Source: a bacterium (GTDB taxonomy: Bacteria; AUK180). Taken from it: 64,000 bases of DNA. Numbering within the stretch: position 1 is the stretch's first letter; the number at the start of each line of letters is the position of its first letter. This document shows positions 38,597-49,637 of this stretch, one piece after another. The DNA is taken from assembly GCA_023144005.1 (NCBI GenBank), contig JAGLGN010000032.1, forward strand, positions 5,606 through 69,605. Direction: 5' to 3'. The notes under the pieces are model-generated. The model made no database searches and was not told the DNA's origin. It saw nothing but the letters and a program-made list of their open reading frames with translations. Made by a program: the position numbers and the translations under genes.

Positions 38597-41500
38597 ATGA
38601 AAAAAGACGAACAAAACATCGGCAAGAGCTTCTTAATAGATGATCTTCCATCTCCCTATATGTTGATCAAGAATGAAAAGGTTTCTTCTATGAATGAGAT
38701 CGCCCATTCGCTCACGGGATATGCATCTACCACAGAACCGGTGCCCCTTTCTGAAATATTCGAAGAGGCGGACCTCGCCATTCTACTTAATAAAATAAAC
38801 TCAATAGAGCCCAAGGACTTCAGGAGAATGGACGCGATACTGCTGACAAAAGGGAAAAAGAGGATACATGTCGAATTATTTCTCTCAAGGCCTCACAAGG
38901 AGAAAGCCATCCTATGCTGCCTGAATCCTGTTGAGAAAAGGTATGATTTTCAGAACAAGCTCTTTGAGAGGGAGAGGCAATTCGCCTCATTGCTGAAAAA
39001 TCTTCCGGGGATCGCCTATCGGTGTAAGATCGATGAATACTGGACAATGGAGTTTCTTTCAGAAGGCTGCTATGAAGTTACAGGATACACTCCTGAACAG
39101 CTTATTGAAAATAACGAGCTCGCGTACGCTGATCTGATCAGCGAAGAAGACAAGGAATATGTGAGTAGAACAGTGCTTTCTTCCGTAGAGAAAAGAGAGA
39201 TGTTCACCCTGGTTTATAGAATAAAGACCGCTAAGGACGAGATTAAATGGGTTTGGGAAAAAGGTCAATCATTTGAAAATGAAAAGGGCGAAAAAAGACT
39301 GGAAGGGTTTATTTCAGATATTACCGACCGGATAAAATACGAAAAGGAATTTCAAGAGAGCCGTACCCTCTACGAGCAACTTGTTGAGACATCTCCCGAT
39401 GCCATCATCCTCCTGCATCCCGAGGGAATAATAAAGATGTCCAATTCCAAGACAGCGGAGCTTTTCGGATATGCGGATCCAAACGCTTTTGTAGGGAAGT
39501 CGATCTACGATTATGTTTACCCCGAATACAAATTCCCTTTGGAAAAGTGTATTTCCAGCACAATGATCACAAATGAGCCAGCCGAGAAGGAACTCATCTT
39601 TAAAAAGGGAAATGATGTGATTTTCTGGGGAGATGTCAGAGCATCCGTGATCCGGGATAATCACGGAAATGTTCAAATGATAACCCTTATCATTAGGGAC
39701 ACTACCGAGCGGAATATCACGGATGAGAATCTGAGAAAGAGCCGCGAGAAATACAAAGCGGTCCTTGCCGCTGTTCCCGATCTTATCTTCCTGATGGACA
39801 ATGAAGGTACGTTTCTCGATTACAAAGCGGAGATCGGGCAGGATCTGATACAAAAACCCGATTATTTCATTCATCGCAATGTCTATGAGGTCGTTCCTAA
39901 ATATATTGCCGATCTGACACTGGCACACATCAAAAAAGCGGTGAAAACCAATAAGATGCAGAAGTATGAGTATATGCTTATAAACGCCAATGGGCAGAGA
40001 GAGGATTTTGAATCCAGAGTTGTCCCTGCGGGCAGAGGTGAATGCCTCGCTATTGTCCGAAATATCACCGAAAGAAAAAGGGCTGAGAGAGAGTTGATCT
40101 CTGAAAAAGAAAGATTGGACATTACCTTGAGTTCGATCGGTGATGGAGTGATCTCAACCGACACCAAAGGCAATATTACTCTTATCAACAAGGTAGCGGA
40201 AAAAGTATTGAAAGTGCGGAAAACCGATGTTATGGGACATCCTATCACGAAGTACTTCAAATTACTGCGGTCGCGCGATAAAAAGCCTCTTTCACCGCCG
40301 CCTTTCAAGGCGGTCCTTGTAGACAAAAAAGCGATCGATTACACCGAAAATATCCTACTTTCCTTCACGGATGCTGAACCCATACAGATCGGTTTTTCAC
40401 TCTCGCCCGTTAAGGCAACAGACGGCACATTGATCGGCTCCGTTCTGGCTTTCCGCGATATTACCGATATCCTTCAGATGCAGAATGAAATGGTCAAATC
40501 ACAGCGTTTAGAATCCTTGGGAGTCCTCGCGGGAGGTATCGCGCATGATTTCAAGAATATCCTTACCGTAATATCCGGAAATATACAATTGGCAGAGATG
40601 TTCTACGATAAAAAGGAACAGACCCTGGAAATATTGAGAGAGGCCTATGATGCCTCGGACAAAGCGGTCGAGCTCACTCAGCAGTTCCTCACCTTTTCCA
40701 AGGGCGGCGCACCCGTCAAAAAGGCGGCTTCTCTCTTCGAATTACTGGAAGAATCCATCACCTTCACTTCAAGGGGTTCGAGCATCACACCCAAGATAAA
40801 AGCCGTGGATGGACTATGGAATGCCGAGGTAGATTCCGGGCAGATCAGTCAGGTGGTAAATAACCTGGTTCTCAACGCCATTCAGGCGATGGGCGATAAT
40901 GGTAAATTGACAGTAAGCGCATCCAATGTCAAGTTTAAAAAGGGAGAGCATCACACCCTGCCCGCAGGCAATTATATTAAGATCGATTTTGAAGACAACG
41001 GCCCCGGGATCCCCGAAAAGACATTGGCCAAGATTTGGGACCCGTATTTTACAACAAAGGACGCGGGTAATGGCCTGGGACTTTCATCATGCTACTCAAT
41101 CATCTCAAAGCATGAAGGACATATTTCAGTAACTTCTAAAGTCGGGAAGGGAACCACCTTTACGATTCTGCTGCCGGCACTTGGGAAATCAGGAAAGATC
41201 AAAAGCATGCGTTCCGCAGAGGAATTGAAAAGAGGCAGCGGAAGGATACTTCTGATGGATGATGAAGAAGGGATCAGAGATCTTACTAAACGAATGTTGG
41301 CAGGATTGGGGTATTTCGTCACCGCTGTTTCTGACGGCGACAATTTATTAAAAGAATACAACAAGTCGGTAAAGCAGAAAAAACCTTTTGACCTTTATAT
41401 AATGGACCTTATTATTGCCGGGGGAATGGGCGGCAAGCAAACTATGAAGAAGTTACTGGTAAAAGACCCAAAGGCGAAAGTCATTGTAGTAAGCGCATTT

Positions 41501-41614
41501 TCAAGAGACGATTCAATTACCAATCATAAGGCACTCGGATTTGCGGGAAGCCTCAAAAAGCCATTCAAACTCGAGGAGATGGCGGAGCTCGTTTTCCAAA
41601 TTATCAATTCATAG
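38597..41614 (+). CDS. Multi-PAS hybrid sensor histidine kinase with C-terminal receiver domain
   Basis: 1005 aa. At least four PAS/PAC modules, HisKA H-box (IAHDFKNILTVISGN), HATPase_c (DNGPGIPE...GLGLS), and a REC domain with conserved Asp (DLYIMDLIIAG). Confidence 0.85.
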   Translation: MKKDEQNIGKSFLIDDLPSPYMLIKNEKVSSMNEIAHSLTGYASTTEPVPLSEIFEEADLAILLNKINSIEPKDFRRMDAILLTKGKKRIHVELFLSRPHKEKAILCCLNPVEKRYDFQNKLFERERQFASLLKNLPGIAYRCKIDEYWTMEFLSEGCYEVTGYTPEQLIENNELAYADLISEEDKEYVSRTVLSSVEKREMFTLVYRIKTAKDEIKWVWEKGQSFENEKGEKRLEGFISDITDRIKYEKEFQESRTLYEQLVETSPDAIILLHPEGIIKMSNSKTAELFGYADPNAFVGKSIYDYVYPEYKFPLEKCISSTMITNEPAEKELIFKKGNDVIFWGDVRASVIRDNHGNVQMITLIIRDTTERNITDENLRKSREKYKAVLAAVPDLIFLMDNEGTFLDYKAEIGQDLIQKPDYFIHRNVYEVVPKYIADLTLAHIKKAVKTNKMQKYEYMLINANGQREDFESRVVPAGRGECLAIVRNITERKRAERELISEKERLDITLSSIGDGVISTDTKGNITLINKVAEKVLKVRKTDVMGHPITKYFKLLRSRDKKPLSPPPFKAVLVDKKAIDYTENILLSFTDAEPIQIGFSLSPVKATDGTLIGSVLAFRDITDILQMQNEMVKSQRLESLGVLAGGIAHDFKNILTVISGNIQLAEMFYDKKEQTLEILREAYDASDKAVELTQQFLTFSKGGAPVKKAASLFELLEESITFTSRGSSITPKIKAVDGLWNAEVDSGQISQVVNNLVLNAIQAMGDNGKLTVSASNVKFKKGEHHTLPAGNYIKIDFEDNGPGIPEKTLAKIWDPYFTTKDAGNGLGLSSCYSIISKHEGHISVTSKVGKGTTFTILLPALGKSGKIKSMRSAEELKRGSGRILLMDDEEGIRDLTKRMLAGLGYFVTAVSDGDNLLKEYNKSVKQKKPFDLYIMDLIIAGGMGGKQTMKKLLVKDPKAKVIVVSAFSRDDSITNHKALGFAGSLKKPFKLEEMAELVFQIINS

Positions 41615-44523: not shown

Positions 44524-46347
44524 TCAATTCTCCTCCATTTTCAACATATTCAAGAGCTTCAGCTGCAAATTGGATTTTGCCGTCTCGCCATGTTCCGAAT
44601 ATATCTCCGCAAGCAAAGCTCTGAGTTCTATTTCCAAATACACAAAACGGTCCTGTTGTGAAATTGCCGCTGCATCCTCAACAAATCTGATCGCAGTATG
44701 AAGGTCTTTTTTCCTGTAAAGCTGGCCCATAAGGTGATAGTATTCTATCAGGCATCGTGGATCTTTCAGAGTTTTTGGATCCACCTGATCTAATTTTTTC
44801 TCCATCTTCTCCATATTGCCTTCCTGAAGGTCGATCGTAGCAAGCGCCAATATGATCTCAGAGGTAGGATCAAACTGTTTCTTAAGATCAGAAATAATAG
44901 GTCTTGCCTTTCTCAATTTTCCCCAACGGATAAAATTCTTCGCCCTTTCCAGATTTACCAGATATATCCCTCTTTTTATCTCTAAATTGCGAGATGTTCT
45001 CAAATTCATAAGGAAGTTCTGCTCGGCAGCCTCATAGCGCCCCATCACGCTGAGAAGTTTTCCTTTGCCGCCGTGAGATATGGACAAGCCATAGGAATCG
45101 TCCAGATCATGTTTCAGGTCAAGAGAAAGATCATAATATTTCAAGGCCTTATTAAAACCGCCAAGATCGAATTGTATCCTGGCTTGAACATCATACATCT
45201 TGGCTAAGTTCAGAGAGATCTCCTCATAGAGCTGGTAATTCTCATCCAGAAGCTCAAAGTACTTTAAGCCGATGGAGTAATTCTTATCATGCACCAGCAT
45301 CAATGTGCCTGACAATTCCTTGTATATCTCTTCACAATAGGCCATCTCAACCAATGCCGCCTCTTTCTTATTCAGCTTCCAATAGCTCATCGCCAGATGC
45401 CTCAATGCGCGGGCGTGCTCCAGAGGAGATATATGCCGATTCGACAGGATCATCTCCGAAATATTGATCACCTCATCAAATTCCTTCTTATAATAGTGGT
45501 AGAGCGCGTTTTCATTCAAGAATTTATCATTGATGGCGATCCCGTACTCGCTGGATAACTGCTCCAGTTTCCGTATCGTCAAAAGGGACTGGTCTAATTG
45601 CTTCATCTTATTGTGGATCTCGAGCATTTTCAATTCAATTGAATACTTTCTTTCGGGGTCTTTAAATTTTTTCTCCGCTCTTTTAAATAGCTTAACCGCC
45701 TCTCCCCAGGCATTGGTCTCGAATCCCCTGCTGAAATTCATCCCTTTTAAGAACTCTATTTCACCTTCTTTAAATAGAATTACGAAGGCATCAACAAGCT
45801 TAGGGTCGTACAATGTGCCTTTATGGGCGATCAGCTCTCTAACGGCATCTGAATCGCGCTTTCTGCGGCGATAGACCCTATTTGTGGTCATCGCGTCATA
45901 GGAATCACAAATGCCGATTATTCTCGATACTAAGGGAATATTTTCTCCGGTCAGACCGCCCGGATAACCGCTGCCGTCCCATCTCTCATGATGATGCTTG
46001 ACAATGATATTGACTTCCTGTAGAAGGGGGTGTTTTGAAAGGATGTGCTGCGCATAGATAACATGTTTTTCCATTTCTAATGTCTCTTCTCTGCTTAAAA
46101 TCCCTTTTTTCTTCAATACATGCTCCGAGATCTTTGCCTTACCGACATCGTGAAGCTGAGAAGCAAGATATACGGTGGATATTTCATTTTTAGAAAGGCC
46201 GATGTACTCGGCTACTTTAACCGCATAGAGTCTTACGCGGTCTGAATGTCCGGAGGTATATTTATCTTTCGCGTCAATGGATTCTGTCAGATATTTGACC
46301 GCTAGAACGAAAAGGTCCTGAACATTGAAGTTTAAAATATTCCCCAT
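44524..46347 (-). CDS. HD-GYP domain c-di-GMP phosphodiesterase with C-terminal TPR-like repeats
   Basis: 607 aa. N-terminal HD motif HDVGK and the HHERWDGSGYPGGL HD-GYP signature, followed by long TPR-like helical repeats. Confidence 0.8.
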   Translation of the reverse strand: MGNILNFNVQDLFVLAVKYLTESIDAKDKYTSGHSDRVRLYAVKVAEYIGLSKNEISTVYLASQLHDVGKAKISEHVLKKKGILSREETLEMEKHVIYAQHILSKHPLLQEVNIIVKHHHERWDGSGYPGGLTGENIPLVSRIIGICDSYDAMTTNRVYRRRKRDSDAVRELIAHKGTLYDPKLVDAFVILFKEGEIEFLKGMNFSRGFETNAWGEAVKLFKRAEKKFKDPERKYSIELKMLEIHNKMKQLDQSLLTIRKLEQLSSEYGIAINDKFLNENALYHYYKKEFDEVINISEMILSNRHISPLEHARALRHLAMSYWKLNKKEAALVEMAYCEEIYKELSGTLMLVHDKNYSIGLKYFELLDENYQLYEEISLNLAKMYDVQARIQFDLGGFNKALKYYDLSLDLKHDLDDSYGLSISHGGKGKLLSVMGRYEAAEQNFLMNLRTSRNLEIKRGIYLVNLERAKNFIRWGKLRKARPIISDLKKQFDPTSEIILALATIDLQEGNMEKMEKKLDQVDPKTLKDPRCLIEYYHLMGQLYRKKDLHTAIRFVEDAAAISQQDRFVYLEIELRALLAEIYSEHGETAKSNLQLKLLNMLKMEEN

Positions 46348-46390: not shown

Positions 46391-46466
<76 letters not shown>

Positions 46467-46475
46467 ATCCCATTT

Positions 46476-46991
46476 TTAGTATTCTATTATAGTGAATATC
46501 TCCAGATTGTCAAGTTTTTTCCGGGCTTCCAGGAATTTTAATTCCACTAAGAACAAAGCCCCGACCACACTTGCACCATTTTTTTCGATCATTTTCTTCA
46601 CAGCACCTACGGTTCCGCCTGTAGCAAGAAGATCGTCTATGATCAAGAATCGATCACCTTTATTTATGGCATCTTTGTGCATCTCCAATGTGTCTTCCCC
46701 GTATTCAAGGGAATAACTCTCAGAAATGGTCTCAGCGGGGAGCTTCCCTTTCTTTCTCACGGGAATAAAGGGTTTGTCCAAAAGATACGACAGTGCGCCG
46801 CCAAAGATAAATCCCCTGGATTCGATCGAAGCCAATTTATCATACTCAACATTTGCCAGAACATCTTTCATGGCATCAATTGCCTTTTTAAAACCCGCAG
46901 GATCCTTCAGCAGAGTAGTGATATCTTTGAATACTATACCCTTTTTCGGGAAATCCGGAACATCTCTGATCAAAGATGATAATTCTTCCAT
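46476..46991 (-). CDS. apt: Adenine phosphoribosyltransferase, possible independent translation product from the internal start
   Basis: 171 aa starting MEELSSLIRDVPDFPKKGIVF with its own strong SD. Canonical APRT PRPP-binding motif. Confidence 0.6.
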   Translation of the reverse strand: MEELSSLIRDVPDFPKKGIVFKDITTLLKDPAGFKKAIDAMKDVLANVEYDKLASIESRGFIFGGALSYLLDKPFIPVRKKGKLPAETISESYSLEYGEDTLEMHKDAINKGDRFLIIDDLLATGGTVGAVKKMIEKNGASVVGALFLVELKFLEARKKLDNLEIFTIIEY

Positions 46992-47819
46992 ATGCCTCTC
47001 CTTTTCAATATTTAAATTGCTTTGTATTATTCCTACACCCTTATTGATGATCTGTCTAACCCTTTCTTTCGAAAGGCTCATAATGGTCCCAACCTCATCA
47101 AGAGTTCGAAAGGCATGGCCATCCAGCCCAAAACGCAATGAAATGGCCTGCTTAACTTTCGGTTTTAAGGATGAGATCATCTTCGACACATATTCACTCT
47201 TATCCTTTCTGTCCTCTTCTTCGTAAAATGAGGCGCTGTCGCGGGAAAGCGTGAGATAATTAATGAAATCCTCGCTATCATTATCTATCTTGAATGACAT
47301 CGAATATTCATTTTGAACAATATTTAATTGATGCAGAAACTTCTCTTCTTCCATGTCAAATTGCTTTGCGATCTCTTTCGTTGTTGGTTTTCTCTCATGC
47401 TCGTGAAAGAACTCGTCGATATAATTCATAACTTTCACGCGAAAATCAAGAATATATATCGGGATCTTAACTATTCGCGCGTTCTTATCGATGAAATTGA
47501 TTATATACGCCTTGATCCAAAAATATGCGTATGTAGAAAATTTGAAATGCTTCTCAGGTTTAAAATGATCGATGGCTTTGAGCATGCCGGAAACTCCTTC
47601 AGAAAGGATATCCAATTTACTGATCCCCCGCAATCTGAAGTACTTCTTTGCGACCATTATTACAAGTCGTTGATTATGAAGGATGATTTTTTCTCTAAGA
47701 GCATGATCACCTGTCTTCTTGTACTCTACAAAATACTCATACTCTTCTTCGGAAGTGAACGGTTTGTAATCCTTCAATTCACGAAAATATATTTTTAAGA
47801 GCTTATCTTCAATATCCAT
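46476..47819 (-). CDS. Sigma-70-family sigma factor fused in frame to adenine phosphoribosyltransferase (APRT)
   Basis: 447 aa with no internal stop. Residues 1-276 carry sigma regions 2 and 4 (FSTYAYFWIKAYI, ARIVKIP, LSKERVRQII). Residues 277-447 are a complete APRT (LIRDVPDFPKKGIVFKDIT...LIIDDLLATGGT). An AAGGAGAGG RBS lies 5 nt before the internal ATG at 46991. Confidence 0.7.
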   Translation of the reverse strand: MDIEDKLLKIYFRELKDYKPFTSEEEYEYFVEYKKTGDHALREKIILHNQRLVIMVAKKYFRLRGISKLDILSEGVSGMLKAIDHFKPEKHFKFSTYAYFWIKAYIINFIDKNARIVKIPIYILDFRVKVMNYIDEFFHEHERKPTTKEIAKQFDMEEEKFLHQLNIVQNEYSMSFKIDNDSEDFINYLTLSRDSASFYEEEDRKDKSEYVSKMISSLKPKVKQAISLRFGLDGHAFRTLDEVGTIMSLSKERVRQIINKGVGIIQSNLNIEKERHMEELSSLIRDVPDFPKKGIVFKDITTLLKDPAGFKKAIDAMKDVLANVEYDKLASIESRGFIFGGALSYLLDKPFIPVRKKGKLPAETISESYSLEYGEDTLEMHKDAINKGDRFLIIDDLLATGGTVGAVKKMIEKNGASVVGALFLVELKFLEARKKLDNLEIFTIIEY

Positions 47820-47825
47820 ATTTTC

Positions 47826-48566
47826 TCATGGTAAGAACAGTAGAGGGTTCAGCGGAAGCTTCTTTTTTCTCACTTCGAAGTGAAGGATCTCGCCGCTCAC
47901 CTTAGCAACTACCTGTCCGGTAACGATCTTCTCACCCTTTTTCACTTTAACTTCCTCGCAGGGATAGTAGAAGACGTAATATTCGGCATCGACCTGAAAT
48001 CCGACCATTAAGCCAATACCCTTAAGGAAGTCCAAATATGTTACCACCCCGTTATTTACGGCTATGATCTCCTTTGTCCGGGGTTTGATATCTATTCCAT
48101 TATTATTCGTGAAGATCCCTAATTCTTCATTGTATATCCTGCCGAATTTCCGGATCACGCTTTTTCTGTCAACATTATGTAAAGGCCATGACCTCAAGAA
48201 AGAGTCTCCCCCGTTGGAAAGCTTTGCGCCGGGCAAGGGCTTCTCGGCAGTTGAAAATGACCCGGCGCCTGGAATACGCAAGACCTGCCCCACTGATATT
48301 TTCGTGGCATCTTCAATAGAATTGAACTCCGCGATATCCTCTATGGGCACCTTGAAATTCTTACTGATACGGTAGAGGGTCTCCCCTTTTCTCACCTTGT
48401 GAACCGCATAGTTCTTGTCTGGAATCACAATCTTCTCAATTTCCTCTCTGGCTTCTTTTTTTGCCGCCAGAATTGTTGTCTTATTATTTTCAGTGACCAT
48501 TGATCTTCCGATCAGGGAACATGAAGAAAAGACAAGGGGAATAAATAGAAGCGCAGCTAAATTCAC
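47826..48566 (-). CDS. LysM-domain M23-family peptidoglycan peptidase
   Basis: 246 aa. Signal peptide, LysM (YRISKNFKVPIEDIAEFNSI...GQVLRIP), C-terminal M23/LytM-like domain. Confidence 0.8.
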   Translation of the reverse strand: MNLAALLFIPLVFSSCSLIGRSMVTENNKTTILAAKKEAREEIEKIVIPDKNYAVHKVRKGETLYRISKNFKVPIEDIAEFNSIEDATKISVGQVLRIPGAGSFSTAEKPLPGAKLSNGGDSFLRSWPLHNVDRKSVIRKFGRIYNEELGIFTNNNGIDIKPRTKEIIAVNNGVVTYLDFLKGIGLMVGFQVDAEYYVFYYPCEEVKVKKGEKIVTGQVVAKVSGEILHFEVRKKKLPLNPLLFLP

Positions 48567-49027
48567 TTTTTTCTGGAACTGAATATTTTTTCTGCCTCGG
48601 TGATCGCACCCTGAGCTTCATTGACTTTGATCACTTTGTCATCCACATCCCACGAGCTGATCGAGATCACAGGCTTATTGATCTTAAGAGCCATCGCGAT
48701 CTCCGATAATGTTCCCAAACCCCCGCCGACGGCAATAACGATATCGGCAGTTCTAACGATGATCGCATTCCTCGCCTGCTGCATTGAAGTTAAGATGGGA
48801 ACTTGGATATGCGGATTCGCATCTTTCTTATCGGATCCGGGTAATATCCCAATCGTAAGGCCGTCCTTGCTTCTGGCACCTTTCGCTACACTTTCCATGA
48901 CGCCGCCAAGGCCGCCGCACACGAGGATCCAGCCCTTCTCAGCGATCAAAGCACCTAAATCTTCGGCGATTTTCTCATATTCTTTTAGGGGAACGCTGTT
49001 TCCGACAACTCCGATTATCTTGCTCAT
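48563..49027 (-). CDS. TIGR00725/LOG-like Rossmann-fold protein
   Basis: 154 aa. GVVGNS...VCGGLGGVMESVAKGA...AVGGGLGTLSEIA pattern of the LOG/TIGR00725 family. Confidence 0.7.
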   Translation of the reverse strand: MSKIIGVVGNSVPLKEYEKIAEDLGALIAEKGWILVCGGLGGVMESVAKGARSKDGLTIGILPGSDKKDANPHIQVPILTSMQQARNAIIVRTADIVIAVGGGLGTLSEIAMALKINKPVISISSWDVDDKVIKVNEAQGAITEAEKIFSSRKK

Positions 49028-49043
49028 AGTTTTACTCCATAAA

Positions 49044-49119
49044 TGGTCGGGGTGACTGGATTCGAACCAGCGACCTCTCGGCCCCGAACCGAGCGCGCTA
49101 CCAACTGCGCTACACCCCG
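49044..49119 (-). tRNA. tRNA-Pro (anticodon CGG)
   Basis: Hand-folded 76-nt cloverleaf: acceptor CGGGGTG/CACCCCG, D-arm GCGC-AGTTGGTA-GCGC, anticodon stem CTCGG/CCGAG with loop TTCGGGG, T-arm GCTGG-TTCGAAT-CCAGT, discriminator A, encoded CCA. Confidence 0.8.
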
Positions 49120-49637
49120 ATCTCTTTCAAAAAAAATCCAGCATTTTTGATTATACCAATATCAATTAAATAAGTCAATAAACCCACTGCTATTGAGGCA
49201 ATGAAGACACCCAAAGCAATAAAGACAATTGACTTCTTCTTATCCAATTTCAAAAAGAAATATATAAGCGCTCCCGTCCAGGCGCCACTGCCCGGTAATG
49301 GGATGGATACAAATAACATCAGACCGACAAACTCTAATTTCTGGACCAGAGCCGATTTGGTTAAGGCCTTTTGCCTTAATTTCTCTAATATATTGTTCCC
49401 GCCGTTGATGCCTTCGATCCACTTTGAAACAGGATCCAAAAGTAAGACAACCGGAAGAATGACTGCCAAGTTTCCTGTCAACGACAGTAACACTGTTTTT
49501 ATAATACCGAATTTGAACAGGAAAACACCTAAAGGGATCCCTCCCCGCAGTTCAAAGATCGGAAGCATCGAAACGAGAATAACTATGGCTTCGCCTGACA
49601 ATCCGATCGAAGCGAGATAATCAACAATTGGCTGCAT
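49110..49637 (-). CDS. Small multidrug export-like membrane protein (COG2426/PF06695-like)
   Basis: 175 aa, 4 TM. FELRGGIPLG motif. The 3' end overlaps the tRNA-Pro 5' end by 10 nt. Confidence 0.55.
   Translation of the reverse strand: MQPIVDYLASIGLSGEAIVILVSMLPIFELRGGIPLGVFLFKFGIIKTVLLSLTGNLAVILPVVLLLDPVSKWIEGINGGNNILEKLRQKALTKSALVQKLEFVGLMLFVSIPLPGSGAWTGALIYFFLKLDKKKSIVFIALGVFIASIAVGLLTYLIDIGIIKNAGFFLKEIGV

Follow-up and report, generated by a model that had tools for sequence, protein, structure and literature searches.

Cells usually regulate sigma factors of the RpoS/RpoD type through distinct anti-sigma factors and adaptors, through proteolysis, or through small molecules that act on RNA polymerase, and the place downstream of a sigma gene is usually that of an anti-sigma gene; we know of no characterised RpoS that carries an enzyme at its C-terminus. 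Adenine phosphoribosyltransferase (APRT, Apt, EC 2.4.2.7) is a homodimer which converts adenine and PRPP to AMP and PPi. In gamma-proteobacteria, nlpD lies directly before rpoS (RpoS review PMC10948607). Sigma factors of the ECF41 group are regulated in cis by their C-terminal domain (PMC3426412), and fused C-terminal regulatory domains have been described in ECF41, ECF42, ECF56 and others (review PMC8999054). The PurR of Bacillus and Firmicutes consists of a winged-helix N-terminal domain (PF09182) and a phosphoribosyltransferase (PRT) domain without enzymatic activity, which binds PRPP and (p)ppGpp and sets the transcription of purine genes (PMC8789054). In-frame internal starts have been documented genome-wide in E. 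coli (bioRxiv 10.1101/520783; PMC11005335). Our literature search found no paper that relevantly combined sigma factor, APRT and fusion, and none in which a sigma containing region 3 had a fused sensor domain or an intact central-metabolism enzyme as one; for SLOG/LOG together with phosphoribosyltransferase, sigma factor and gene neighbourhood, nothing was relevant by title or abstract, and a paper on Apt and c-di-AMP in Staphylococcus has no bearing on the fusion.

The window analysed here is a stretch of 64,000 nucleotides of bacterial contig JAGLGN010000032.1, in which an open reading frame on the minus strand (46476..47819, ATG start, stop codon 46476-46478 included) encodes 447 aa. This single product carries Sigma70_r2 (aa 46-115), r3 (aa 129-189), r4 (aa 215-261) and Pribosyltran (aa 301-426), all above the Pfam gathering scores; the one stop-free frame of sigma factor and APRT that the sequence-only reading had noticed was borne out by the ORF list, Pfam and NCBIfam. 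The identical protein at NCBI, MCK5224721.1, is recorded merely as 'adenine phosphoribosyltransferase'. All parts lie on the minus strand: the RpoS/RpoD-like sigma half, without region 1.1 (aa 1-272, 47004..47819), has r2 at 47475-47684, r3 at 47253-47435 and r4 at 47037-47177 by Pfam, the linker (aa 262-276, 46992..47036) is the natural C-terminal tail of the sigma by alignment with the RpoS tail, and the APRT half (aa 277-447, 46479..46991) is complete with its substrate-binding motifs intact.

Sigma regions 2, 3 and 4 are all present and in order (51.2 bits for PF04542 against a cut-off of 24, 35.0 for PF04539 against 25.3, and 37.5 for PF04545 against 24.1), which is the architecture of the sigma-70 family. 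E. coli RpoS aligns to the window sigma over aa 59-325 of its 330 (32% identity, E 3e-43), the closest solved structure to the sigma half is E. coli RpoS 5ipl_F, and within the top 25 NCBIfam matches those to sigma models were of the RpoD, RpoS, SigA-D, RpoH and MzaA types, with no FliA/WhiG or SigB/F/G model among these 25. The sigma had first been taken for group-3-like, and this did not hold, as RpoS/RpoD models and E. coli RpoS structures matched best and an NlpD-like gene lies upstream; by sequence, the sigma half is RpoS/RpoD-like and group 2-like. The NCBIfam RpoS and RpoD models gave about 157-161 bits for the sigma half against cut-offs of 384-394, and because the curated RpoS equivalog cut-offs were missed (NF004207, 157 bits against 394; TIGR02394, 156.7 against 378.7), we call it RpoS-like and not RpoS. 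The partner sigmas of other lineages came nearer to the RpoS cut-off (356 against 394 in locus L005) and none passed it. Its RpoS-type traits are the region 1.2-2-3-4 layout without 1.1, an RpoS as the best solved match and an nlpD-type gene upstream; the Pfam model r1_2 was absent among the matches of the window protein and present in a second group of fused proteins (clade B, described below). A homologue search with the sigma alone returned few close relatives, none usefully named.

The window sigma carries the motifs NQRLV, SEGVSGM, FSTYAYFWI, LRFGL and KERVRQI, which we set beside the reference motifs NLRLV (2.1), EGNxGL (2.2), FSTYAxWWI (2.3), LRFGL (4.1) and RERVRQI (4.2), which serve in core binding and promoter contact. 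Within the clade of the window (clade A) NxRLV, SEG, FSTYA..WI, LRFG and ERVRQ are conserved, and ERVRQ is invariant in 10 aligned relatives, E. coli RpoS among them. Region 2.4 reads KAYIINF in this clade. The Gln and Arg that are conserved in the RQxIxRA motif and recognise the upstream edge of the -10 element are missing from it, and specificity for this edge probably differs from that of RpoS in the window clade.

For the APRT half, aa 274-447 matched positions 3-176 of the 176 in the NCBIfam equivalog NF002636 with 231.8 bits, where the cut-off is 125; TIGR01090 gave 214.6 bits against 185.85, and NF002634 gave 210.6 against 170. RGFI, RKxGKLP, YxLEYG and DDLLATGGT are invariant across 15 full-length fusions; by comparison with type I PRTs and human and E. 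coli APRT, DDLLATGGT is the PRPP-binding loop, RGF the pyrophosphate loop and LEYG holds the Glu-Tyr of the flexible loop. The AF2 model of this half has a pLDDT of 87-97, and Foldseek matched it to the solved APRTs 4lza, 4m0k, 2dy0 and 6fci with target TM-scores of 0.92-0.97 and an rmsd of 1.0-1.7 A; the same search of the PDB found no chain covering both sigma and APRT halves. The equivalog cut-offs, the full model coverage, the motifs and the fold confirm the complete in-frame APRT seen at first, and on these features the half is predicted to be a catalytically intact APRT. In the APRT tree of 80 loci (this tree and those below are neighbour-joining trees without support values), APRTs partnered with a sigma are scattered among standalone APRTs, and apt occurs without the sigma in some Omnitrophota. 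A specialised APRT paralogue was ruled out by this interspersion; the partnered APRTs look like ordinary housekeeping-type apt that would do no more than share an operon with the sigma, which makes the nucleotide-sensing idea somewhat less probable. By tblastn no second copy of the sigma or of apt was found within the window.

A frame of this kind could also come from a sequencing or assembly error, or from a wrong gene call, that erased a real stop between sigma and apt, and there are grounds for such a suspicion: related lineages have a stop at the equivalent position, one apparent fusion (locus L048, below) proved to be an open-frame artefact of high GC, and several multi-domain matches in our search of representative proteins were duplicated or chimeric. 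It is opposed by five further full-length 447-aa strain variants from other assemblies (98-100% identical) with the same open junction, the six variants sitting on at least 13 contigs in all in the NCBI, ENA and Logan assemblies, which we took as a stand-in for a read-level check of the junction; the amino-acid differences among these variants are confined to the sigma half and the linker. Moreover, the open junction and the synteny are kept in four clade A relatives (54-59% identical), clade B comprises at least eight fused proteins (493-500 aa, ~495), several of them named 'Leptospirales bacterium', with both halves conserved in frame in the two clades, and two more fused proteins, P0007 and P0008, occur singly. 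Conservation of the fusion in related genomes, proposed earlier as a check, is found in clade A, clade B, P0007 and P0008. The independent assemblies rule out a sequencing or assembly error, and we regard an artefactual junction as highly improbable.

All organisms carrying the fusion are uncultivated. Synonymous sites are saturated (proportion of synonymous differences, pS, 0.58-0.92), while the proportion of non-synonymous differences (pN) lies at 0.15-0.43 for the sigma and at 0.07-0.25 for the APRT; judged by these values both halves are under purifying selection and the fusion is long maintained. For the sigma half, this selection would be indirect support for binding to RNA polymerase core and promoter-specific initiation. 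Among the best 150 matches of the fusion profile in 1.84 billion proteins, P0016 and P0003 were the sole true fusion representatives, and therefore the fusion is rare; no extra lineages appeared among these 150, and the other multi-stretch matches were rejected as internally duplicated or chimeric sigma/APRT sequences. When metagenomes were scanned with the sigma half of clade A, no new clade A members were among the best 80 of at least 600 candidates, these 80 loci being ordinary sigma-70 genes of at most 36% identity.

Separate sigma genes directly upstream of apt were found at 14 unfused loci from about seven phyla (Nitrospirae, Planctomycetia, Hydrogenedentota, Eisenbacteria, Limisphaerales, Omnitrophota and Auribacterota), with a stop-to-start gap of -4 to 16 nt in 10 of the 14 and a single in-frame stop between the two genes at four loci (L005-L008). 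Against this background, apt is downstream in just 1 of 80 generic sigma loci, the best 80 of the metagenome sigma scan. The junction reads ttg TAA AGG AGG cat ATG in the unfused L005 of Nitrospirae and gaa AAG GAG agg cat ATG in the window. The possibility, raised earlier, that relatives have a real stop at the junction was right for separate lineages such as L005 and wrong for the window's own clade, which is uniformly fused, and therefore the absence of the stop in the window is no error. In the sigma and APRT trees the fused P0007 is sister to the unfused L009 and the fused P0008 to the unfused L008, and the trees indicate that fusions or fissions took place at least four independent times. 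Two further candidates were set aside: L048 (Eiseniibacteriota), whose 600-codon open frame is the high-GC artefact mentioned above, is an unfused pair with the sigma in another frame and ending with TAG 2 nt before the apt ATG, and in L019 apt precedes a different, Lys/Ala-rich group-3-like sigma. As a separate observation, the close spacing and the single in-frame stops at four loci raise the mutational opportunity for neutral fusions.

At the window junction, the internal Shine-Dalgarno (SD) AAGGAGAGG (46995..47003, minus strand) codes Lys-Glu-Arg of the linker, and 6 nt separate GGAG from the in-frame ATG of Met277 (46989..46991, minus strand), by conservation and alignment the ancestral apt start and the probable internal initiation site; the junction letters are exactly those first quoted, and the SD that had been described at the end of the sigma codons before the APRT Met was upheld. 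The junction ATG has the best anti-SD pairing of 27 ATG contexts in the gene (-8.0 kcal/mol, against -2.7 kcal/mol at the ORF's own start and -2.6 to -5.1 kcal/mol at the ORF's own starts in clade A); of the 10 fused genes, 8 have their junction ATG in first or second place among all ATGs (-7.8 to -9.8 kcal/mol). AAGGAG or GAGGAG is retained in every clade A gene despite the saturation of synonymous sites. Near the old apt start, 9 of the 10 fused genes have an SD and all 10 an in-frame ATG; P0007 lacks the SD at its junction Met. Met277 is conserved in clades A, B and P0008 and, where apt is a gene of its own (L005, L031, L039, L043 and further loci), lines up with its start codon. SD-like purine runs are frequent in these Lys/Glu-rich genes (42-80 ten-mers at or below -6 kcal/mol per clade A gene), so what speaks for the SD is where it lies and that it is conserved, not that it is unique. 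What we found is a conserved, properly spaced SD before a conserved in-frame start, and as SD and ATG are kept in nearly all or all of these genes, two products are predicted: the locus probably makes both a sigma-APRT (~52 kDa) and a free APRT (~19.6 kDa). At the outset the locus had been read either as a real bifunctional protein or as a gene pair that no longer has its separating stop and in which the internal start still yields APRT; the two readings hold in combination, the fusion being real, apparently arisen by stop loss, with the old apt SD and ATG kept.

At its end the sigma reads IIQSNLNIE, which aligns with ILQTQGLNIE at the end of RpoS, and the linker is constant in length, with zero indels among the five clade A members. 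AF2 predicts a continuous helix over aa 251-282 of the window protein (pLDDT 84-92) and a broken, low-confidence linker in clade B; a common rigid linker geometry was ruled out by this difference between a helical clade A and a disordered clade B. The pTM of 0.40-0.51 means that the predicted structures have no confident inter-domain packing. The differing linkers of the two clades offer no common geometry that could stand behind an allosteric mechanism.

An NlpD-like lipoprotein gene with signal/lipobox, LysM and M23 parts (47826..48566, minus strand; Pfam LysM and Peptidase_M23) ends 6 nt before the sigma start, and translational coupling between the two is likely. With E. coli NlpD its product shares 31-32% identity in each of the two domains, the gene is upstream in all clade A loci, and in E. 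coli nlpD is directly upstream of rpoS. Before it lies the first gene of the compact unit, for a SLOG cluster 4/LOG-like protein (48563..49027, minus strand; Pfam LDcluster4, 158 bits), which keeps this upstream place in clade A and the unfused L005; 16 nt upstream of this gene is tRNA-Pro(CGG) (49044..49119, minus strand; ARAGORN and Rfam), the probable start of the transcription unit. The loci of clade A and clade B, and L005, have the same tRNA upstream. The promoter scan placed a sigma-70-type promoter, TTGACT-17-TGnTATAAT, upstream of tRNA-Pro (49150..49178, minus strand), with 11 of 12 matches, an extended -10 and conservation in clade A. A further promoter, TTGACA-16-TATAAT (46486..46513, minus strand), lies in the last 13 APRT codons and by the scan serves tRNA-Arg(CCT) (46391..46466, minus strand; ARAGORN and Rfam), which begins 9 nt past the fusion stop codon; it has 12 of 12 matches and is conserved at the nucleotide level in L001, L086 and L087, and L085 is without both tRNA-Arg and this promoter. 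Rfam showed the two tRNAs alone near the locus, and no riboswitch or other RNA element.

We favour, with moderate confidence, the explanation that the locus encodes a stable fusion of an RpoS-like sigma with an intact, ordinary APRT, which came about when a long-standing, closely coupled sigma-apt pair lost the stop between its genes, so that the natural C-terminus of the sigma would be the point of joining to the ordinary APRT of the cell. The unit of tRNA-Pro, LOG-like gene, NlpD-like gene and sigma-APRT would be transcribed from the strong housekeeping-type promoter; weak reinitiation after the NlpD-like gene would yield the 52-kDa sigma-APRT, and ribosome loading at the much stronger internal SD would yield the free 19.6-kDa APRT. 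Since APRTs are homodimeric, most sigma-APRT would pair with free APRT, and each sigma would thus bear a dimeric, active APRT on its region 4.2 tail, with the APRT going on with purine salvage. The most speculative step, which we hold to be doubtful, is that occupancy of the APRT site (by PRPP, adenine, AMP or possibly (p)ppGpp) or dimerisation modulates the sigma.

How far the two halves work together is the question on which the remaining readings differ. If the fusion is a neutral accident of the operon, the sigma stop was lost, the enzyme is tolerated on a free C-terminus, the internal ribosome-binding site keeps apt normal and no coupling exists; we consider this possible, short of favouring it. 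Tight spacing and the single in-frame stops of L005-L008 mean that one mutation makes a fusion, the SD and ATG inside the frame persist and form a stronger start than that of the sigma, the APRTs are ordinary, the linkers differ between the clades, and the many other APRT fusions in databases (among them those with MTAP, acylphosphatase and enoyl-CoA hydratase) show that APRT fuses readily. What a neutral origin fits less well is the persistence of the fusion down to ~50% identity with saturated synonymous sites and zero reversions in the sampled clade A and B members, and the repeated independent fixation, which goes beyond what one would predict if the appended enzyme burdened a sigma that has to dock to RNA polymerase. 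The pairing kept across phyla would also still call for an explanation.

It is unlikely, in our estimate, that the APRT is a dedicated sensor or anti-sigma-like module that reports PRPP, adenine, AMP or (p)ppGpp to RNA polymerase, the fusion making permanent, as in a Rosetta-stone argument, an interaction that exists between the separate proteins. The repeated, independent fusion of sigma and apt points this way, as do their adjacency in about seven phyla, which is not generic to sigma genes (the 1 of 80 given above), the position and 4-nt overlaps of apt, typical of sigma/anti-sigma pairs, and the clade A linker, fixed in length and predicted to leave the recognition helix of region 4.2 as a rigid helix; precedents are Bacillus PurR, with a PRT domain sensing PRPP and (p)ppGpp (PMC8789054), and ECF41, a sigma regulated by a fused C-terminal domain (PMC3426412). 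However, the APRT retains every substrate-binding motif, whereas the PRT domain of PurR is enzymatically dead (PMC8789054), the partnered APRTs form no distinct lineage, the clade B linker is modelled as flexible, and the domains are not confidently packed. We think it improbable that a housekeeping APRT moonlights as the dedicated partner of an RpoS-like sigma and couples RNA polymerase to the PRPP/adenine/AMP/(p)ppGpp state in many, mostly uncultivated phyla (Omnitrophota, Planctomycetota, Verrucomicrobiota, Nitrospirota, Hydrogenedentota, Eisenbacteria, Auribacterota and Leptospirales-like spirochaetes).

Should the APRT influence the sigma, the stable fusion which we prefer would link purine or energy status to the choice of promoter in a new and very direct way, parallel in concept to control by PurR and by (p)ppGpp. 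Even if it is neutral, it brings to light a conserved sigma-apt linkage across several poorly known phyla and a clear natural gene fusion that keeps the ribosome-binding site of the downstream gene as an internal start, together with a systematic annotation error, the name 'adenine phosphoribosyltransferase' hiding an RpoS-like sigma in these genomes.

Among known systems, the fusion sigma resembles RpoS and group 2 in its region 1.2-like start, regions 2-4, absence of region 1.1 and RpoS-like tail, and the nlpD-rpoS locus in having a LysM and M23 lipoprotein gene directly upstream; it differs from RpoS in bearing a 171-aa enzyme at its C-terminus and in falling under all curated RpoS/RpoD cut-offs. 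The window APRT differs from Apt in being made as the C-terminal part of a sigma protein, probably besides being made alone. With the extended ECF sigmas the fusion shares a folded domain past region 4 in the same gene, but those are minimal sigma2-sigma4 proteins whose extensions are SnoaL-like, TPR or zinc-binding and not enzymes of central metabolism, whereas the window sigma has region 3, its best matches in groups 1/2 and an intact enzyme with its own start codon; by these features the fusion is an analogue of the extended ECF sigmas and not a member. Like PurR and PyrR, it would be a transcription regulator on a PRT fold, PurR joining a DNA-recognition module to a type I PRT; unlike PurR, it has a sigma in place of the winged helix (PF09182 had no match in the window protein by Pfam) and a PRT of the APRT type, with control by ligand hypothetical. 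As in bacterial N-terminal proteoforms, a conserved in-frame SD and ATG inside the ORF predict a shorter product, but here a once separate gene has left the start behind, and what would be made from it is no truncated isoform but a complete, independent enzyme.

The sigma::APRT ORF (46476..47819, on the minus strand, which the sequence-only reading had left unstated) is one ATG-initiated frame of 447 codons, in which Pfam places Sigma70_r2 at aa 46-115, Sigma70_r3 at aa 129-189, Sigma70_r4 at aa 215-261 and a phosphoribosyltransferase domain at aa 301-426. Residues 274-447 give full-length matches, above curated cut-offs, to the NCBIfam adenine phosphoribosyltransferase (APRT) equivalogs NF002636 (231.8 bits, cut-off 125) and TIGR01090 (214.6 bits, cut-off 185.85). 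The junction reads gaa AAG GAG agg cat ATG, with the internal Shine-Dalgarno sequence (SD) at 47003..46995 and the ATG of Met277 at 46991..46989 (both minus), and in the sequence of the window ORF no stop codon lies between the halves. Therefore, the claims that a sigma factor and a complete APRT share a single 447-aa frame without a stop, and that an internal SD and ATG mark the join, are borne out, the latter to the exact bases quoted.

An identical protein, MCK5224721.1, is recorded at NCBI under 'Candidatus Calescamantes bacterium', and its 90% cluster contains five further full-length 447-aa variants (98-100% identity); these variants come from NCBI, ENA and Logan assemblies (13 contigs or more), and every one has an open junction and few substitutions, confined to the sigma half or linker. 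Four less similar proteins, P0002-P0005 (446 aa, 54-59% identity to the window protein), are fused likewise and form clade A with the window protein; their loci share the order Sm_multidrug_ex / tRNA-Pro / SLOG-LOG-like / LysM-M23 / sigma::APRT. The proteins of clade B (P0009-P0016; 493-500 aa; 31-34% identity), several of which bear the name 'Leptospirales bacterium', carry the fusion as well but differ in context (tRNA-Pro / acylphosphatase / sigma::APRT / YCII), P0007 (518 aa) and P0008 (536 aa) are additional fused proteins, and P0026 is a fragment of one; conservation in related genomes, which had been proposed as a check, was thus found in clades A and B, P0007 and P0008. Between fused genes the proportion of synonymous differences is saturated (pS 0.58-0.92) and that of non-synonymous differences is lower (pN 0.15-0.43 for sigma, 0.07-0.25 for APRT), therefore both halves have long been under purifying selection as one frame. 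Variants in separate assemblies, distant fused relatives and purifying selection rule out an artefact, and the protein is almost certainly a genuine, conserved fusion derived from a gene pair. Public records label it APRT only. Only two true fusion representatives were present among the best 150 in a profile search of 1.84 billion representative proteins, therefore the fused state is rare.

Many other high-scoring 'multi-stretch' representatives (P0134-P0146 and others) carry an internally duplicated sigma or APRT, for example an E. coli-type RpoS with a repeated block; these resemble artefacts of assembly or gene calling and could mislead surveys of domain architecture. The 377-aa P0018 (Candidatus Aureabacteria) passes straight from sigma regions 1.2-3 into an APRT part without its first ~20 residues, and region 4 is absent; it is probably an in-frame deletion, pseudogene or assembly chimera of a sigma-apt pair.

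Unfused pairs were sought by scanning one genome per GTDB species with ORF parsing, and a separate sigma gene (~270-370 aa) immediately 5' of a separate apt was found at 14 loci in total, one of them (L101) from a metagenome scan: L005 in Nitrospirae, L006, L039 and L043 in 'Planctomycetia', L007 in Hydrogenedentota, L008 and L048 in Eisenbacteria/Eiseniibacteriota, L009 in Limisphaerales, L031 in Auribacterota, and L020, L037, L038, L044 and L101 in Omnitrophota or Omnitrophota-like genomes. L048 was considered as a fusion and rejected, its long open frame being a high-GC artefact. The sigma stop lies -4 to 16 nt from the apt start in 10 of the 14 pairs, and in L005-L008 the two genes are in the same frame, one stop codon apart; the L005 junction reads ttg TAA AGG AGG cat ATG against gaa AAG GAG agg cat ATG in the window, so a single base change would be enough to fuse the pair. 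Among the best 80 ordinary sigma-70 loci of the metagenome scan, apt was downstream in one (L101), and sigma-apt adjacency is no general property of sigma genes. Neighbor-joining (NJ) trees, whether of the sigma or of the APRT parts, pair fused P0007 with unfused L009 and fused P0008 with unfused L008 as sisters, and clades A and B are uniformly fused; we provisionally count at least four independent fusion or fission events from these trees, which carry no support values. Of the bifunctional protein and the gene pair with a lost stop that the sequence-only reading had offered, each holds in part: the stop-free fusion is real, and a stop-separated pair, its stops kept in L005-L008, is the source.

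Some Omnitrophota and 'Planctomycetia' pairs have further neighbours in common, namely a putative pyruvate phosphate dikinase-like gene upstream (~900 aa; L006, L020, L038, L039, L043; assigned from the C-terminal motif by eye) and a conserved ~215-aa protein downstream (L006, L038, L039, L044, L101), putatively PHP-like, also by eye. In one Planctomycetota MAG (L019, 5592-7479) the order is reversed, apt preceding a different sigma, whose group-3-like core follows a long N-terminal extension rich in Lys and Ala; this arrangement is separate from the sigma-apt pair.

The proposed group-3-like identity of the sigma half did not hold: the NCBIfam sigma models among the best 25 are RpoD, RpoS, SigA-D, RpoH and MzaA, so that the subfamily by HMM is RpoD/RpoS-like and not group 3, and no sigma model reaches its cut-off (RpoS/RpoD models 157-161 bits, cut-offs 384-394). 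Among solved structures, E. coli RpoS chains match best (5ipl_F, E 2e-36), then SigA and RpoD. By BLASTP the sigma half is 32% identical to residues 59-325 of the 330 of E. coli K-12 RpoS (E 3e-43), it lacks region 1.1, and the alignment reaches the tail (IIQSNLNIE against ILQTQGLNIE); therefore APRT follows on what is essentially the native C-terminal end of an RpoS-like protein. Partner sigmas of other lineages are more conservative (39-49% identity to RpoS), the L005 sigma scoring 356 bits with the RpoS model (cut-off 394). The gene 6 nt upstream of the fusion (47826..48566, minus) encodes an NlpD-like protein that combines a lipoprotein-type signal with LysM and M23 domains, each sharing 31-32% identity with its counterpart in E. 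coli NlpD, and since nlpD lies directly upstream of rpoS in E. coli K-12 (RpoS review PMC10948607), this shared synteny supports the RpoS-like label. In region 2.4 the window clade reads KAYIINF instead of RQxIxRA, the conserved Gln and Arg being gone, whereas ERVRQ of region 4.2 is invariant in aligned relatives, which, from general sigma-70/RpoS knowledge, suggests an altered recognition of the -10 upstream edge and a conventional -35 contact. By promoter scan, canonical TTGACA / TATAAT promoters are clearly in use as well at the tRNA genes of the window, consistent with a housekeeping sigma encoded separately, elsewhere in the genome; the 64-kb window itself contains no further sigma or apt gene.

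The fusion lies in a compact same-strand unit (gaps of at most 16 nt) running from tRNA-Pro(CGG) (49119..49044, minus) to tRNA-Arg(CCT) (46466..46391, minus), behind a near-consensus predicted promoter, TTGACT-17-TGnTATAAT (TGgTATAAT; 49178..49150, minus), which in clade A sits within the 3' end of the Sm_multidrug_ex gene. tRNA-Pro(CGG) also stands just 5' of the sigma-apt unit in clades A and B and unfused L005 (window 49044-49178, L001, L086, L087, L005, L002, L089), and this synteny is old. Directly 5' of sigma, an acylphosphatase gene is found in clade B, P0008, L008 and L005 (L005 2203-4702, L002, L089, L090, L088, L008); the full L005 order, tRNA-Pro / LOG-like / acylphosphatase / sigma / apt, is possibly the ancestral layout. 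The unit's first gene (48563-49027, minus), kept in clade A and L005, encodes a 154-aa SLOG cluster 4 / LOG-like protein. Enzymes of the LOG family split nucleoside monophosphates to give free bases, opposite in direction to APRT, and a functional link is possible. A perfect predicted sigma-70 consensus promoter, TTGACA-16-TATAAT (46486-46513, minus), lies within the last 13 codons of the ORF, embedded in the sequence coding for the APRT C-terminus (…KLDNLEIFTIIEY) 20 nt 5' of tRNA-Arg(CCT); its nucleotides are kept in L001, L086 and L087, all with the tRNA, and absent in L085, without it, and by sequence it is dual-use coding and promoter DNA. Signalling proteins are encoded downstream by 44524-46347 (minus; 607 aa, an HD-GYP-type HD_5 domain plus TPR repeats) and 38597-41614 (plus; 1005 aa, a hybrid histidine kinase with multiple PAS domains and a receiver domain).

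An in-frame ATG near the old apt start is present in all ten fused genes with DNA, and nine have an SD before it: AAGGAG at 6 nt spacing in the window, L086, L087 and L001, GAGGAG at 9 nt in L085, AGGAGAG at 6 nt in L088, and GGAGGGAG or GGAGGGAA in clade B. In P0007 (L004) the junction Met itself lies further upstream, as in its unfused sister L009, and is not preceded by an SD. In 8/10 genes the anti-SD pairing of the junction ATG ranks first or second within the gene (-7.8 to -9.8 kcal/mol), against only -2.6 to -5.1 at the ORF's own start in clade A, which lies at most 6 nt from the stop of the NlpD-like gene or overlaps it. The linker around the SD is variable (EKERH, EEKRN, QKELI, NKEWL), these genes are AT-rich and synonymous sites are saturated, therefore the keeping of AAG GAG rather than AAA GAA points to selection on the nucleotide sequence; its rough chance is ~1e-3 to 1e-4 from Lys/Glu codon usage over independent clade A lineages, with the caveat that SD-like purine runs are frequent in these Lys/Glu-rich genes. 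Bacterial in-frame internal starts are well established (bioRxiv 10.1101/520783; PMC11005335), and on balance we favor an internal start in use here, inferring two products, sigma-APRT (~52 kDa) and free APRT (~19.6 kDa), with the free form probably in excess. A weak promoter-like site overlapping the junction and SD (TTGAAA-18-AATTAT, 9/12 matches, 46979-47008, minus) could give apt its own transcript or may be chance at such a score.

In the AF2 model of the window protein (pLDDT 86.5, pTM 0.51) a single unbroken helix is predicted at aa 251-282 (pLDDT 84-92), leading from the recognition helix of region 4.2 across the linker, constant in length throughout clade A, into the first APRT helix. 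The linker of clade B P0010 (pLDDT 78.7, pTM 0.40) is longer (aa 307-324), broken and of low confidence; thus the models suggest that tethering is common to both clades and fixed geometry is not, and these pTM values yield no confident inter-domain packing. We propose that the unit is transcribed constitutively, that sigma-APRT would be translated at a low level by coupling, and that APRT would be translated independently and more strongly. Because APRTs are homodimers, the fused domain would pair with free APRT, and each sigma molecule would then bear an active APRT dimer on its outward-pointing region 4.2 tail.

Whether such a dimer would regulate or sense for the sigma is another matter, and we consider this partnership rather unlikely. 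It would agree with the recurrent fusion of the same two genes, the conservation of the pair across phyla, the position of apt where anti-sigma genes typically lie, and the precedents of PurR, in which transcription is controlled by a PRT domain that senses PRPP and (p)ppGpp (PMC8789054), and ECF41, with sigma factors regulated by fused C-terminal domains (PMC3426412). However, the linkers of clades A and B are unlike, such junctions are mutationally easy to fuse, and the APRT half is by sequence ordinary, complete and fully catalytic: RGFI, RKxGKLP, YxLEYG and DDLLATGGT are unchanged in all 15 fusions aligned, and its AF2 model (pLDDT 87-97) can be superposed on solved APRTs (target TM-score 0.92-0.97, rmsd 1.0-1.7 A). 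In an 80-APRT NJ tree, sigma-partnered members are scattered among standalone ones from related taxa, so that the partnered enzyme resembles the housekeeping apt and not a specialised paralogue. Databases also hold many other APRT fusion partners. A neutral fusion, merely tolerated, is a reading we entertain tentatively.

APRT is often fused in public data: MTAP/PNP (PF01048)::APRT (~425-450 aa) dominates the listed matches, enoyl-CoA hydratase, MFS, GGDEF and histidine-phosphatase combinations are also listed, and P0045 and P0072 are acylphosphatase::APRT proteins. No description of a sigma-APRT fusion or sigma-apt pair was found in the literature searched. The fusion is not a new category, and is best classed with sigma factors carrying fused C-terminal domains, PRT-fold transcription regulators and two-product genes.
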